This document shows, one piece after another, positions 15,001 to 27,000 of a stretch of 47,721 nt of DNA. The position numbers were made by a program. Every line of letters begins with the position of its first letter. Within the stretch, counting starts at the first letter, position 1. The DNA comes from Candidatus Rifleibacteriota bacterium (GTDB lineage: Bacteria > Muiribacteriota > Ozemobacteria > Ozemobacterales > Ozemobacteraceae): positions 1-47,721 of the forward strand of contig JBNJGH010000012.1 of the NCBI GenBank assembly GCA_051747585.1, written 5' to 3'.

Positions 15001-18000
15001 CTTCTATTGTATGCTTTTCATTTGGTGAATATTCAACGTTGCGGGGTATACCTGTTAAAAGATTGTCTATTTTGCTTTTAAGATGATTTTTTTCTTTTTG
15101 TAAAATATCGATATCGGCTTCAAGATCAGATGTTCGGTTTTCAAGTGACTCATGAGAGCTTTTAAACTTTTCATAACTAATTTTGAGGCTGTCTGAAAGT
15201 TTTTGAAATCTGGTTTTATCAATAGAAGTTTTGTCGAGTTTATTTCTAAGAGCCTCTATTTCCTGAGAATAATTGTCGACCATATCTTGAAGTTCTGAAT
15301 TATGACTTCTCAGGCTATAAGTCTGATCTCTGAATTCATTCAATTGCTTGCGGGCTTGCTCGAGCTCTTTACTGTTCTTTTTGCCTTCTTTTTCGCTATT
15401 GGATAAACGAAGACTCAAGTCTTTGCTGTGCATTTGCATTTGCTTGAGTTCATTTTGTAGTTTTTCAATCTGCTCGTTGAGCTTGTTGTTTTCTTTTTGC
15501 AGATTTTTAAAATCCATTACAGTATCAGCAAGGCTGAATTTAAACTGTTCTATTTTTTCTTCTTTTTCGGCAATTTCACTTTTAAGATTGCGAAGCTGCC
15601 TTGCCACATTTGAATTTTCCTCGGGAAGGTTTTCTTTTAAGCGTTGTTGCAGATTAATCAGCTCTGCAATAATTTCCGGAAAATTTATTCCCGAAACCTG
15701 AATTGAAAGTCTGAAAAATCTGTCGTCCTGTTTTTCTGCAGGCAAACTCTTAATAACTGAATTGTATTTCTGAATAAAAATTTTCAGAGTTTCAATATCA
15801 GCAATTAAGCGACCAATGTCAGGATTATTTGCCTTTTCTGTCATTTTTTAATTAATTTGAGTCAAAGATGATGATAGAGACAAACACTAATATTATCAGC
15901 TCCACCATTCAAATAAGCAGCTTTCACCAGATTTTCCGCCAGCTCATTTAAATTGGTTCCTTCTGGTTTATAAACTTTCTCTATTATTTTTTGCAGGCTT
16001 TCATCTTCGACAAATCCACAAAGTCCATCTGAGCAGAGCATTATAAGATCGCCCTGTTTCAAGGTAATATTTTTCCGATCAACCTTTGGTGTTTCAGCTA
16101 CTCCCAATGCTCTGGTAATGATGTTTCGGTTGGGGTGAACAAAGGCTTCTTTTTCATTGATTTTACCTTGATCAATAAGTTCCTGAACCAAAGAGTGATC
16201 TTTAGTCAGTGTCTTTAGAGTTCCATCTTGAAAACGATAAGCTCTGCTATCGCCAACGTGAGCGAGTGCCAGAGAATTCCTATAAATGAGACCGGCAACA
16301 ACTGTAGTTCCCATTCCTTCCATTTCGGGGTTTTGACAGGCTTTTTCATATATGGCAAGGTTGGAATTTTTAATCCAGGTTTCCAGATAAGTAGTTTTGT
16401 CGGCGGTTAAAAAATCTTCGGGCAGAGTTTTGAATAAGTTGTCTACAACTTTATGTTTTATCGTTTGCACCGCCAGCATGGATGCAAATTCACCTGCTGC
16501 AGCACCGCCCATTCCATCAGCTAGTATAAGTGCAGTCACTTGAAAAGTGTTGCCCGCCGGGCCACACCAGTCTACGCTGATAGACTCGGCGTAATCTTCA
16601 TTATTGGGCCTGACTTTCCCTTTGTCGCTCAAGGTATAGAAATTCATTTAATTTCTCCCACAATATTTATGGCATTCTAAAGTCTTTATAAGACAGAGTC
16701 AACGTTTGTAGCGTTTTTTGCAGTTTTAAATCAAGAAAAAATACTTTTTGAATTTTTATTGTTATTTGTATCGACATAAAAGGAGGGATTATCCATTTCT
16801 ATATCGTACCAGTCGGGAGTGGTTGGATGATGATAGGAACTTTTGCTTGAAACCGATCTTTTTGCTTTTACTTTGTTAAATTGCCAATCTTTAATTATTT
16901 TGTCATCCATTTTGAATAATTTTAACTTCTTATTTTCCTTTTTTATGGCTTTTGATTCAGGTAGGTCTGGCTCAAAAGAAATGGGGGAGGCCTCTTTTTT
17001 TATTAGAGAAAGGCGATCTTTTAACACTAAAGAAGTCGTTTGCGGTAATTTAGCGAAGCTGAATTCAGCATTGCGGGGATAAGACTTTATTAAATCGGGT
17101 GAATTGTAAGCTTGTGCGCCTCTTTCGATGGGGGTAATGCTGTAAATTAAATCATTTTGGTCAATTTTATCGAAAAGATTTTTGGTTGTAAGCTTACTGT
17201 AAGGTTTTGAACAGAATTTAAATTTGGAAGTAAGTTTAGAAGAAATATTAGTTTCCGGATAATCAGGTTGAACCGGAGATTTTAAACTGTAATTTAACTT
17301 GTTCTGATATATTTTTAAGAAATTACTTAGAAGAATTACCCAATGAATTGCTGTCATATCAAAATTTTTAAAAGGCTGGATTCTTGAATCGAGTCTTAGC
17401 CGCAATTTATACAATTTTATTTTTTGCTTTTTAGCAAATCTGATGACTTTTCTTTGCGATAATTTGGAAATTTTTTGCCCGATTTCATAATTGATAGTGC
17501 GAACTAATTTTTCTTTCTTTGCAGAAGTCAGTTCAAATTGGTTTTTAGATTCATAATTAAGTCTGGTTAAATTGCTTTCTTTAACAGTCAGATATTTTTG
17601 CAATTCAGGTTTGGGTATAGATATTCTGGCTTCGTTAAAAAAAACACTGGAATGGACTTTATGACTGAATAAGCAGGCATAGTTAGTTTTAAATTCGACT
17701 CCAACAGGAGCGAATTCTATAATATTCGAGGTTCTAAACTCTTCAGATGGGTCAAAATCTTGAGTCTGAGTTGCCTCTTCGATGTTAAAAAAAGCAAATT
17801 TATTTTCTATTCTATTTAAAAATTCAGGATAATAAGGAAAAAAGAATTGTCTGAATCTGGTTTGATACTCTTCTAGATTAATGTTTATCTTGTGCTTGAT
17901 TGCAGGAAAATTGTTATAAAAGGCAAAAATCGGTTTGTAGTTAAATATATTTTTTGAATCCCGAGTTTTGAAAGCTCGACTATGTTTAAGGTTAAACTTT

Positions 18001-24000: not shown

Positions 24001-27000
24001 GGTATCTCGACTGTTGATATTTTACGTTTCTGCTAATTTCGTCATAAACCTGCAGATTGATAGAATCGGGAAAAGAGTTCCTTAATTTAAGGGGAGCAGT
24101 AGAGTCGAGATCTATTACTGCAATCTTGTTTCCTGCATTGTTGAGAAAAACAGCATAATTGGCAAGTAACGATGCCTTGCCGGTGCCAGCACTTATAGAG
24201 CTGAAGAGATATACAGGAGTAAGAAAAGATGCGCTACCCATTGTATGCACATCATATCATAATTTATAATTCAATTTCCATGCCTTCTTTGGCGAAATCA
24301 GTGGCTGGAAATAATTTACGAACTTCTTTTTCGAGATTGGAAAGAAATTCATCGGTGTGAAGTGGGTCATGATGCGTTATAATCAGCCTCTTTGCTCCTG
24401 ATGCTTTGGCAACCCTTACGCCTTCGTGTGGTGTCGAGTGCCCAAAACCTTGTTTGCCCGATTCTTTGAGGTTGAATTCGTGGGGGGCATATTCCCGGGG
24501 AGTGTATTGGCCATCATAAATCAAAAGATCTGCATCTTTTGCCAGATCTAACAAATTTTTATCAATGCTACCATCAGAGGGGTGCTCACAGTCGGTTGCA
24601 ATAGTGATGACTTTGCCGTTGTCTTCGATACGGTAGCCCAGAACCCCGCTCGGGTGTATCAATTTTGCAGCAGTAAAATGAGCATTGCCGATAGAAATCT
24701 GATTCTCAAGTAAAGATTTAAAGGATATTTCAGCAGATAGATAGTTCAAATCAACCGGAAAATAATAATTATCCATTTGTCCTCTAAGGGGGCTTTCAAG
24801 CCGTTCACCTACATCCGCTGCTCCGTATAGAATAAGTTCGTTACATTCTTGTAATACTTTTTCGCCTTTTTCATTTTTTTTGCCCACATAAGCCGGTGCG
24901 AAAAATGGAAAACCTTGAATGTGATCCCAGTGTGAGTGAGTGAAAAAAATGTGAGCTTTACCTTTGCCAACACCAAAGGGGCCTTTGAGCATTTCCTGGC
25001 CGAGAACCCTGATTCCTGTACCTGCATCTATTATGACATTTTGATTGTCAGAAGTCGTAATTCCAATACAGGTAGTGTTTCCACCAAATACTACAGTTTC
25101 TTTGCCAGGTACGGGTATCGATCCTCTGACACCCCAGAATCTTATTCTCACCTCTGAATAGCCTTTCTATCGTATTTATCTTATAGATACATTGATACCA
25201 TAGATTCTACAACTCTTTCCAGATCTTGTTTGTTGTAGAATTCTATTTCTATTCTTCCCTTTGCTTTTCCCTGTCTGATGCGAACTTTTGCACCAAGCAG
25301 ATCTTGCAGATTTTCTTCGACTGCCCTTATGTGTAGGTCTGCATTCATTTTGGTTTTATTATCCTTTTTGGCTAAATTAGCAGGCAGATCTTTTTTTGAA
25401 CGGGCAATCTGTTTTTCGGTTTCGTAAACCGAAAGGCCTTCTTTAATGATTTTTCTCGCCCAGTTTTTTATGTGAACAGAGTCTCTCATTCCCGCAAGCA
25501 TTTTTGCGTGGCCGGGACTGATTTTCCCATCAATTATCATTAACTGAACTTCAGAAGGAAGTTGTAAGAGTCGCAGGCGATTAGTTAGAGCTGATCGACT
25601 TCGACCAATTCTTTCGGCAAGCTGATCATGAGTAAGACCATGATTCATCAAGATCTCTTTCAAAGTTCGAGCTTCTTCAAGTGGGTTCAGGTCTTTTCGT
25701 TGAATATTTTCAATTAAACCTGCCAGCATGGTTTGTTTTTCATCGAGCTTTCTGATGACGGCCGGTATCTTTTTCAGACCCGCCATTTTACCTGCTCTGA
25801 AACGCCGTTCACCTGAAACAATTTGAAAGTTGTTGCCGATTTGCCTTACCAGAATCGGTTGCAACACCCCATTTTTTTTTATTGATTGTGCCAGTTCTTC
25901 AAGATACTGCTTTTCAAAGACCTTGCGCGGCTGACCAGGATTTGCTGTTACCTGGTCCAGAGGCAGAAAACGAAAATTCATTTCGCTTTCGCTCTCAGAG
26001 AGAGCTACGCCTTCCAGGTTATTATCGACAAAATCCTGTGTGTATTTTAGTTCATTTTTTTTCATAAGTAGAGAGTCGGTATTTTTATTTATTTTTTAAG
26101 TTTATGCTATATTATTAAAGAATGACAACCAATTATATCATAAATCTGGAGGCGGATGCATGTCTGATTTCAAAATAAGAGATTTGTTTCAACCTTTGTT
26201 CCTTTTCATCCTGTTTAGCAGTGTATTTGGTGCACAAAATTTGTGGGCACAACCCATAGAATCAACTCCTGAATATCAGGCTGCAAAAGAATTTCTTGCC
26301 CAGGGAGCTTACGATTCAGCTGTCGGTGAAATTGAAAAACTAATATCCAGGCGCAAGTTTTATGGTCCGGCTATGTTAGAACTCGGAAGAATTAGACTGC
26401 AACAGGCCGAAAGAGAAATGAGCATGGCGATGACTCATTTCAGCGAAGCGGCTGATTCAATGAAGTCCGGTTTGCAGGCAGATGGCGCTTCCGGTTCGGA
26501 ATTACCCAAAACTCTTTATGAGTTAGGAAATCTCTATGAAGAGAGGCTGAAAAACTTTGTTGATGCAGCTGAAATTTACGAGCGAATCGTTTTAAATCAT
26601 CCAGGCTATTTGTCTATTGATAAGGTTTATTTTCATCTTGCTTCCTGTTATGAAAAAATGGGCAAAAAAGAAGAAGCTGCCCGAAATTATCAAATTGTTG
26701 TAGATGAGTATGGTTATAGTTCATATTATGCCGCCGCGCAGGCGAAAATGAAAGAACTTGCAGTTGGCACCAGCTTTCAAAATGGCGCAATAGAGACCCA
26801 ATCAGATATTTACCTGGATGCCAAAGCCGGTGAAGATGAAGCGCAAGCCGCACTTGATCTTGCAGATATGCATGCCCAGGCCGGGAATTATGAACAAGCC
26901 ATCGATGCCTATCAAAAAGCTGTCGATTCGGCCGAAACTCAGGAAACTGGTATAAGAGCCTATCAAAAAATGATTGATATAATGAATAGCCGCCAAAAGG

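Follow-up and report, generated by a model that had tools for sequence, protein, structure and literature searches.

The locus examined here raises the question of whether a giant protein encoded beside the chromosomal parB gene of Candidatus Rifleibacteriota is the missing partition ATPase, ParA. The window, a 47,721-nucleotide stretch of contig JBNJGH010000012.1, carries a run of minus-strand genes, and the initial annotation read g00612 as the ParA of this lineage. The frames it had described were found as given: parB (25181-26065; 294 aa, Pfam ParB_N, HTH_ParB and ParB_C), a metallo-beta-lactamase (MBL)-fold hydrolase gene (24264-25151; 295 aa; Lactamase_B_2, E 5.5e-19), g00612 or giant 1 (20660-24250; 1196 aa from GTG or 1193 from ATG), g00611 or giant 2 (16731-20663; 1310 aa), and a gene for a Stp1/IreP-type Ser/Thr phosphatase, PP2C (15862-16647; NF033484, 252 bits against a cut-off of 230). 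The operon as listed held, and two genes of the same-strand run that had been left out were added, one for a coiled-coil protein (14195-15844; 549 aa) and one for an all-TPR protein (12031-14169; 712 aa). The stop of giant 1 and the start of giant 2 share 4 nt. Within the run, the minus strand showed no terminator-like site longer than 5 pairs, and a promoter scan gave 40 sites against 37.8 expected. Going solely by gene spacing, the run may be co-transcribed. The MBL-fold protein is RNase Z/phosphodiesterase-like, with RNase Z models far below cut-off, and three kinase-motif ORFs were found in the genome.

Within the family Ozemobacteraceae, 43 of the 50 other genomes carry a giant 1 orthologue, and the 36 genomes compared from ten other families have none. 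Of 28 relative loci examined, 27 have parB, MBL and giant side by side in the order reported earlier for other genera; the exception (G015) has a 4-kb insertion, and the MBL gene adjoined parB in all 28. The absence of an ordinary ParA was likewise borne out, as Soj-grade ParA was found in 0/51 family genomes. The AAA_31/CbiA matches of the source genome look, in part by known motifs, like FlhG-, TadZ/CpaE-, Mrp-, BY-kinase- and SRP-type proteins, and none is Soj-like. A suspected Soj split across contigs C107 and C249 was a cNMP-TadZ-type protein. ParA-like genes of three of 50 genomes (G013, G014 and G015) were rejected as the family Soj, being frames of 380-598 aa unlinked to parB. The fixed site two genes after parB, the lack of Soj and the ParA-class fold of giant 1 all favor a working ParA, enlarged fivefold and moving ParB-parS. 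Some plasmid ParBs, as far as the available text of one report goes, lack the typical motif and still act on ParA (bioRxiv 2025.03.14.642875), which also fits this reading.

We then consider ParB itself, which is present in one copy in the source genome. It carries the marks of a chromosomal ParB, namely ParB_N with GERRxRA (here the CTPase motif GERRFRA), the HTH, the C-terminal dimerisation domain and parS sites. parS-like sites occurred in 36 of 51 family genomes and control sites in 9. parS is not enriched in the source genome because the counts were 1 versus 0 control sites at up to one mismatch and 4 versus 5 at two. Assignment as Noc was rejected: TIGR04285 gave 219 bits against a cut-off of 315, this is a single ParB with no second paralogue, and the pattern we take to be NBS had no site at up to one mismatch and 4 versus 2 control sites at two. 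The ParA-binding motif at the N-terminus was found in 0/27 family ParBs versus 11/11 ParBs beside Soj, and motif loss runs parallel to Soj loss in two families. In the sister family (f11), parA is gone from its ancestral site with no giant gene. The operon also lies 2.3 Mb from oriC in one near-complete chromosome (G010). These findings argue against giant 1 as a ParA. The SMC condensin subunit genes scpA-scpB (31947..33604, plus strand; Pfam SMC_ScpA and SMC_ScpB) lie on the strand opposite to parB at a distance of 6 kb; three relatives (G010, G003 and G011) also have them near parB, and smc was found in 5/5 genomes tested. In the available text of PMC7022226, Streptococcus pneumoniae offers a precedent for a ParB that loads SMC without ParA, and for a link of ParB to a ParA-like protein that has another origin.

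The Pfam matches noted earlier for giant 1 (CbiA, E 1.2e-4; AAA_31, E 2.4e-3) were reproduced. Structure predictions covered residues 1-350 and 270-355. The head (residues ~8-270; 23441..24229) was predicted at pLDDT 80.9 to have the MinD/ParA-class ATPase fold already proposed for it, a SIMIBI-class fold with a Z of 16.5 to MinD 4v02 (rmsd 3.7, 223 aligned). Fold scores tie among MinD 4v02 (16.5), ParA 3cwq (16.2) and FlhG (16.1). The best in-phylum profile for 29 heads was MinD in 24, FlhG in 3, TadZ in 2 and Soj in none. In hhalign, MinD came first (E 2.5e-19), TadZ second (E 5.9e-16), and Soj reached 4e-10. NCBIfam minD_bact matched 25/29 heads and ParA_partition 14; the source giant 1 (28.1 bits) stayed below the curated TIGR01968 cut-off of 212.9 bits. 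Among 17 non-orthologous matches picked as spanning the domain, 16 were best named MinD, one CpaE-like and none Soj. The head profile matched 7/9 genomes of the sister family, at minD, and 0/10 Soj-bearing genomes of family f10.

Diagnostic residues gave the same picture. The MinD residue is present in 26, 28, 26 and 29 of the 29 giants at the positions of E. coli MinD S9, G124, S149 and D154, at which Soj differs in 11/11. The motifs NQKGG, DPQ, DCPPS and CE..A, found in 11/11 in-phylum Soj proteins, are not kept in the 29 giants, nor is the intact KGGxGKT with its signature Lys (Lys in 2/29). In the free tree, the giants and the ParA clade are separate. An AU test did not reject giants and Soj/ParA as one clade (p-AU 0.51), a point for a ParA origin; the giant branch is long, and the greater similarity to MinD could partly be an effect of shorter MinD branches. 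Even so, with profiles and diagnostic residues pointing to MinD, Soj never the best profile, Asn in Walker B, the ParB motif missing, the sister family without either gene and the operon far from oriC in G010, the identification of g00612 as ParA is not upheld, and a working, enlarged ParA is improbable. What stands of the initial annotation is a real, conserved, degenerate MinD/ParA-class head coupled to giant 2.

The head might instead come from a polarity ATPase of TadZ/CpaE or FlhG type, in which case the complex would mark the pole for pili, flagella or signalling, with the parB link incidental or origin-anchoring. The genome has several TadZ-like proteins with degenerate P-loops, and the second rank of TadZ and the five of 29 heads best matched by FlhG or TadZ agree with this origin. 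However, the D154 and G124 equivalents fit MinD and not TadZ, and the Walker B Asp survives in TadZ and FlhG (as in the 6 TadZ-like rows compared). The operon contains no gene recognisable as pilus or flagellar, and a MinE-like domain follows the head. We regard this origin as unlikely.

The active site of the head is degenerate. Walker A G24-K25 is invariant, and the next residue is Ser in 18, Ala in 8, Thr in 2 and Gly in 1 of 29 giants. The reported lack of the signature lysine is correct for the source genome (Ser), but family-wide the residue is Arg in 21/29 and Lys in 2/29. D44 (D47 in the 1196-aa numbering), described as invariant, is Asp in 28/29. The Walker B Asp (E. coli MinD D120) is Asn in 28/29 (Asn132 in the source protein) and is retained in none. 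D40 is kept in 17/29, T17 and D40 being variable, and N45 is lost from the common residues. The intact MinD catalytic set (K11, D40, N45 and D120) was thus found in none of the 29 giants. Asp175 of the source protein corresponds to E. coli MinD D154. The MinD membrane-targeting helix is absent after the head: a linker lies at the point where 13/13 in-phylum MinDs close with a helix that is basic and aromatic. Since the P-loop Gly-Lys and the Asp are kept and catalysis has decayed, nucleotide and partner-helix binding are probable, with little or no hydrolysis. These results support well, as highly likely, a head that would be a bacterial MinD turned pseudo-ATPase, with decayed catalytic residues and with the P-loop Gly-Lys and the MinC/MinE-binding Asp of helix 7 kept.

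Directly downstream of the head, as in the gene order minD-minE, residues 289-336 (23243..23386) form a predicted helix and beta-hairpin like the MinE topological-specificity (dimerisation) domain. In VIA-align, rank 1 of 48,161 chains was the MinE 6u6r at Z 5.1 (rmsd 1.9, 44/44 aligned), and a Z below 8 is a level where a common arrangement can score, below proof of kinship. E. coli MinE 1ev0 gave Z 2.9, and Foldseek placed MinE first at E 0.35. The MinE likeness had been guessed before the structure searches and then came first in both. The hhalign signal of MinE was weak (probability 2-13%, covering only MinE 36-74); the segment was the best of 55 such stretches and above 60 shuffles. PF03776 matched 0/29 segments and gave no match at giant 1 in the genome scan. 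Pfam, PDB-sequence and ESM Atlas searches of the segment gave no MinE match, and the ESM Atlas gave no usable match for residues 275-345. Neither a MinE contact helix nor an N-terminal membrane helix was seen ahead of the segment, the linker 270-288 being unconserved and low-confidence. dN/dS of the segment was 0.01-0.10, a constraint equal to that of the head.

The Min system was also searched for in the family. Canonical MinD was found in 0/50 genomes, no MinC-sized full match in 51, and no MinE over cut-off. Six partial MinC matches lie in frames of ~500-550 aa, one over cut-off. A search with E. coli MinE returned close relatives only, and no free minE over cut-off was found in 87 phylum genomes, minCD-bearing families included, so that the donor minE gene is not in view. 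FtsZ, DivIVA and SMC are present in the family. Families f2-f4 and f8-f10 are also without MinD and have no giant.

The rest of giant 1 is a tail of ~860 aa (20660..23242), Phe/Pro-rich, Gly-poor, of near-constant length, with a few conserved motifs and, at the far C-terminus, an amphipathic helix of a different kind from that of MinD. Tail identity between genera is 11-20%, and composition moves with genome GC. Both would suit the idea that these long frames arose through read-through or decay and are under little constraint. This idea is already largely refuted and highly improbable: the frames stay open at near-constant length at 31-71% GC, and in five close pairs, where computable, dN/dS was 0.15-0.24 for residues 551-1140 and 0.18-0.32 for giant 2. 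Giant 2, as noted earlier, is without a known domain (no Pfam match at E<=0.01), and the ESM Atlas gave no usable match. It is very basic (net +135, pI 10.0), with short conserved motifs in variable sequence. The 549-aa protein has an N-terminal coiled coil, then a tail of giant-like composition with a conserved helix at its end; its gene is absent from the loci examined in genus g14. Homology among the three tails was not found (hhalign E 0.28-0.38), one of 29 tail HMM cross-searches reached E 2.6e-4 with the rest insignificant, and self-BLAST found no internal repeats. The TPR protein has 81-98% identity across the family and a dN/dS of 0.00-0.02, with close orthologues (E<=1e-120) in 45/50 family genomes and 0/36 others. 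It is a candidate binding partner of the giants' motifs.

If the head is MinD-derived but the helix-hairpin generic, the giants would form an assembly that organises the nucleoid or acts as a cytoskeleton and has no bearing on division-site choice. The basic giant 2, ParB in the operon with scpAB nearby, the weak MinE evidence and the loss of MinC suit such an assembly. Against it, both structure searches ranked MinE first at just the place that minE takes after minD, and the constraint on the segment is as strong as that on the head. We consider this assembly rather unlikely. The favored explanation as a whole, by which giant 1 descends from the Min division-site system and not from ParA, has about even chances. 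After decay of the head, an adjacent minE, slightly more probably than otherwise, would have been fused in frame, with only its dimerisation domain kept and the MinD membrane helix and MinE activating helix lost. This loss would make a constitutive, non-oscillating dimer. The tail, giant 2 as its co-translated partner, the coiled-coil and the TPR proteins could, more tentatively, form one large static scaffold at the nucleoid or membrane that marks, most plausibly for FtsZ, a place in the cell and whose assembly PP2C would tune; nothing except ancestry ties this scaffold to division. ParB-parS likely works ParA-free, most likely by loading SMC-ScpAB, and co-transcription may link it to the scaffold, not via a ParA-activating peptide. 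A speculative proposal, with well below even chances, is that the whole family has converted the oscillating MinDE pair into one MinD-MinE chain without catalysis, the seed of a static body of two giants, coiled coil, TPR solenoid and phosphatase. This body would take the place of ParA and MinCDE alike and join ParB-parS to division-site choice, as a cell-cycle scaffold of a new bacterial class.

The giant beside parB is probably a worn-down MinD with a long new tail and, apparently, a fused MinE piece, and not the missing partition motor. This suggests an undescribed scaffold in cells without the usual partition and division-site proteins. The case bears on how bacteria without ParA and MinC place origin and septum: the two are lost throughout this family, which offers a conserved replacement candidate built from recognisable Min parts. 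No paper describing a natural MinD-MinE-like fusion was found in our literature search, a CorMR preprint match being an irrelevant two-hybrid tag fusion. If real, such a fusion would mean that a pattern-forming ATPase pair can freeze into a scaffold. [quoted passage not shown]

TadZ/CpaE and BcsQ belong to the MinD family and have ATPase sites that are degenerate or regulatory. Giant 1 resembles them in the degenerate P-loop and in a probable role in localisation or as a scaffold, but these proteins have 250-450 aa and sit with pilus or cellulose genes. Compared with MinCDE (E. coli MinD and MinE, Aquifex MinD 4v03, Neisseria MinE 6u6r), giant 1 has MinD-type residues with D154 kept and the helix-hairpin in minD-minE order. 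Unlike MinCDE, it is one chain of ~1200 aa with no MinD membrane helix after the head and no MinE contact helix, in a family lacking MinC; because of these missing parts and the decayed catalysis, no oscillation is expected. The locus resembles ParABS (Soj-Spo0J) in its ParB with CTPase motif and HTH, its parS-like sites above control and a ParA/MinD-class gene nearby. It differs in having no Soj, a ParB without the ParA-binding motif, a MinD-like neighbour downstream, few parS sites and, in G010, a position far from oriC. As with the orphan ParB of S. pneumoniae (ParB-SMC, CpsD, RocS), ParB lacks ParA and SMC is present, but here the operon of ParB itself supplies the linked protein, a giant MinD derivative in place of a capsule kinase. 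In the available accounts of PomXYZ of Myxococcus xanthus, a ParA/MinD-family protein and large partners make a megadalton division-positioning body. This may serve as an analogy for how the giants work, although PomX/PomY stimulate PomZ, whose ATPase is active, and no homology to Pom proteins was seen, no search aimed at it having been made.

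The parB operon is encoded on the reverse strand of the window by open reading frames for ParB (25181-26065), an MBL-fold protein (24264-25151), giant 1 (20660-24250), giant 2 (16731-20663), and a PP2C protein (15862-16647). The run continues with a 549-aa coiled-coil gene and then a 712-aa TPR gene, and scpAB lies 6 kb away from parB. The initial annotation had stated that the parB-MBL-giant 1 order is kept in other genera, and this was borne out. Among 28 loci fetched from the 43 genomes with a giant 1 orthologue, the three genes were adjacent in 27; the exception, genome G015, carries a 4-kb insertion. 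In the window, and likewise in 18 of 23 relatives, the gene that follows overlaps the stop codon of giant 1 by 4 nt. For two of those 18, from genus g9, the overlapping gene is an insert, with the giant 2 orthologue two genes farther along. Two extra orphan genes of 898-1124 aa and 395-495 aa separate the giants in this genus (loci L070, 8567-13425, and L071, 8489-12353). The coiled-coil gene is missing from the loci of genus g14 (L059, 3259-6225; L058, L060, L105), and the PP2C-TPR pair is inverted in G030. Window frames 27286-28071, 28756-29694, 36154-36819, 38352-41203 (+), and 41279-42358 (-) had no Pfam match, and several of them are conserved beside parB in relatives.

All 51 genomes of the class were grouped as one family. 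A giant 1 orthologue was found in 43 of the 50 other family genomes, including 26 of the 27 of high quality; the seven without it were 64-91% complete. With a 29-row profile, none was found in 36 genomes from ten other families. Of 1.84 billion representatives, 49 reached E<=1e-30, and those that looked intact were mostly 1160-1270 aa long, with two at 1389 and 1863. The giant 1 locus is real and family-wide.

Giant 1 had been read as the ParA of the lineage, a partition ATPase enlarged fivefold. A model of residues 1-350 (pLDDT 80.9) matched the MinD/ParA class with near-equal scores for MinD (Z 16.5), ParA (16.2), and FlhG (16.1). The fold thus ties these proteins, but sequence separates them. 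When 29 giant heads were compared with in-phylum profiles of 13 MinD, 11 Soj (chromosomal ParA), 10 FlhG, and 6 TadZ-like proteins, the best profile was MinD for 24, FlhG for three, TadZ for two, and Soj for none. The head profile scored on average 49 bits on MinD versus 12 on Soj, and hhalign gave E-values of 2.5e-19 and 4e-10, respectively. We classified 31 of the 150 matches listed. The 17 non-orthologues among them that had been selected for covering the domain were best named MinD in 16 cases and CpaE-like in one; the remaining 14 included one ParA-type protein and three tyrosine kinases, and many partial matches outside the classified set had tyrosine-kinase-like lengths. In E. coli MinD numbering, the giants keep the MinD residue at S9 (26/29), G124 (28/29), S149 (26/29), and D154 (29/29), where Soj differs in 11 of 11. 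According to the accessible text of PMC6803595, D154 of E. coli MinD contacts MinC/MinE, K11 is the signature lysine, and residues 40-46 form switch I. Counter to this, although the giants join the tree by a long branch that lies between bacterial MinD (83/82) and the remainder (93/81), the AU test did not reject a constraint holding them with Soj/ParA (p-AU 0.51). Hence it is similarity and the diagnostic residues, and not phylogeny, that carry the MinD assignment; by them the head of giant 1 is MinD-like.

The Walker A Gly-Lys pair is invariant in all 29 heads and is followed by S, A, T, or G. The P-loop is degenerate, as described earlier: Arg replaces the signature Lys in 21 of 29 heads, and two keep Lys. 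D40 is kept in 17 heads, and N45 has been lost. In place of the Walker B Asp, which all 40 comparison proteins have, 28 heads carry Asn and one carries Ser. Judged from these residues, giant 1 is probably not an active ATPase, and its head may bind nucleotide and hydrolyse little.

Residues 289-336 of giant 1 are modelled as a helix and a beta-hairpin, for which we had presumed a likeness to MinE from the alignment, ahead of any search. Among 48,161 chains, the best match was 6u6r, a Neisseria MinE without the first 30 residues (Z 5.1, rmsd 1.9, 44/44 aligned). It was the sole chain at Z>=5; the runner-up reached 3.9 and E. coli MinE (1ev0) 2.9. Foldseek also ranked 6u6r first (E 0.35), and a later re-alignment with 6u6r represents the same match and not an independent one. 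The hhalign comparisons were weak, both with E. coli MinE (E 0.0023, probability 12.7%) and with an 11-row MinE alignment (E 0.02). The two windows covering the segment came top of 55, and the segment outscored 60 shuffles. No MinE match to it was found in Pfam, PDB sequences, or the Atlas. The matched portion is the dimerisation domain, given as residues 32-88 of E. coli MinE in the accessible text of PMC6803595, and giant 1 may be able to dimerise. The MinE contact helix was not seen in giant 1. The position of the segment after the head agrees with the minD-minE gene order. On balance, we lean slightly towards a MinE-like domain behind the head.

The reported absence of Soj was upheld: with at most 34 candidates scored per genome, AAA_31 at E<=1e-25 matched 6 of 50 family genomes, none at Soj grade. 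These matches were 354-598-aa frames unlinked to parB. Genuine Soj adjoins parB in three other families (f6, f7, f10; 1e-64 to 1e-68). ParA-like genes occur sporadically, in G013, G014, and G015 (L126, 6407-9302; L128, 6305-8972; L127, 6620-8671); they have long N-terminal extensions, are accompanied by a partner gene, and look acquired. Canonical MinD was found in 0 of 50 family genomes, 9 of 9 of family f11, and 4 of 4 of f5. MinC followed the same pattern, with six matches in the giant-bearing family only partial, in frames of about 500-550 aa. No MinE was found above the cut-off in 87 genomes. All five family genomes tested have FtsZ and SMC; for DivIVA the count is 4 of 4. The window's genome also encodes at least seven TadZ/CpaE-like MinD-family proteins with degenerate P-loops and receiver, cNMP-binding, FHA-like, or TPR domains (window 1869-3335 (-); L001, L003-L006, L008). 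The end of its contig C107 and the start of C249 overlap across an assembly break and jointly hold one cNMP-TadZ-type gene.

ParB's motif for binding ParA, whose pattern we take to be G[RK]G[LI], as also read off control rows, was present in 11 of 11 ParBs adjoining Soj, in 0 of 27 from the giant-bearing family, and in 0 of 8 from f11. Six of the eight f11 loci retain parB behind genes that are presumably mnmG-rsmG, named by their motifs, and have no parA. Family f11 (L095-L102) is a second lineage with ParB and without Soj, and no giant was found there; parA can therefore be lost without a giant. It has minCD, MinE was not found, and G080 carries a perfect parS within parB. A plsX-like gene follows rsmG in the window's genome. 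In bioRxiv 2025.03.14.642875, chromosomal ParBs are described as binding ParA by way of an N-terminal motif that has a central Arg/Lys. Given that the family's ParB lacks this motif, that Soj was never the best profile for the 29 heads, and that their diagnostic residues are of MinD type, the assignment of giant 1 as ParA is probably wrong. Giant 1 belongs to the MinD/ParA class; it is neither Soj nor canonical MinD or MinE.

Sites resembling parS, few in each genome, occurred in 36 of 51 family genomes versus 9 with a reversed control; the window's own genome showed no enrichment. G010 is a single 5.2-Mb contig, and its GC skew, sampled in 23 stretches, changes sign at dnaA (0.495 Mb) and a second time at 3.2-3.5 Mb. 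The operon's position is 2.81 Mb; of the three parS-like sites in this one genome, two fall within 0.43 Mb of dnaA. S. pneumoniae ParB has no ParA and influences SMC loading, as described in the accessible text of PMC7022226. The best reading is that the family's ParB functions without ParA. ParB at E<=1e-10 was missing in 15 of 15 genomes of f2-f5, f8, and f9 (G051-G059, G062-G067), several of them 90-100% complete.

Past residue 350, giant 1 is 11-20% identical between genera at nearly fixed length, and its tail is Phe/Pro-rich and Gly-poor. Giant 2 is similar in style, with a net charge of +135 and short conserved motifs. Five close genome pairs, with several values near saturation or not computable, gave a dN/dS of 0.02-0.11 in the head and 0.01-0.10 in the MinE-like part. 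Residues 551-1140 gave 0.15-0.24, and giant 2 gave 0.18-0.32. The TPR protein (window 12031-14169 (-)) is all-TPR, almost fixed at 712 aa, and 81-98% identical in 45 of 50 family genomes. This conservation spans genomes of 31-71% GC and exceeds that of ParB, and no close orthologue was found in 36 genomes outside the family. Such conservation is unusual for a TPR protein. The combination of extended, motif-bearing chains with an adjacent, invariant TPR solenoid suggests that the giants and the TPR protein may form one assembly.

Our best reading is that giant 1 is a scaffold derived from MinD, possibly with part of MinE, and a putative pseudo-ATPase. Most probably, the minD gene of this family, together with a piece of minE, would have lost catalysis, membrane cycling, and MinC and gained the long tail. 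Giant 1 would now seed a static complex with giant 2, the coiled-coil protein, and the TPR protein. Because of the Min ancestry and the intact FtsZ and DivIVA, our leading guess is that this complex marks the division site or pole. In the mostly open-access literature, main texts only, searches on ParB or cell division in Riflebacteria and on MinD-MinE fusions gave no description of this system. As far as the accessible sources describe PomXYZ, the proposed complex would work in a similar way, but without a motor.
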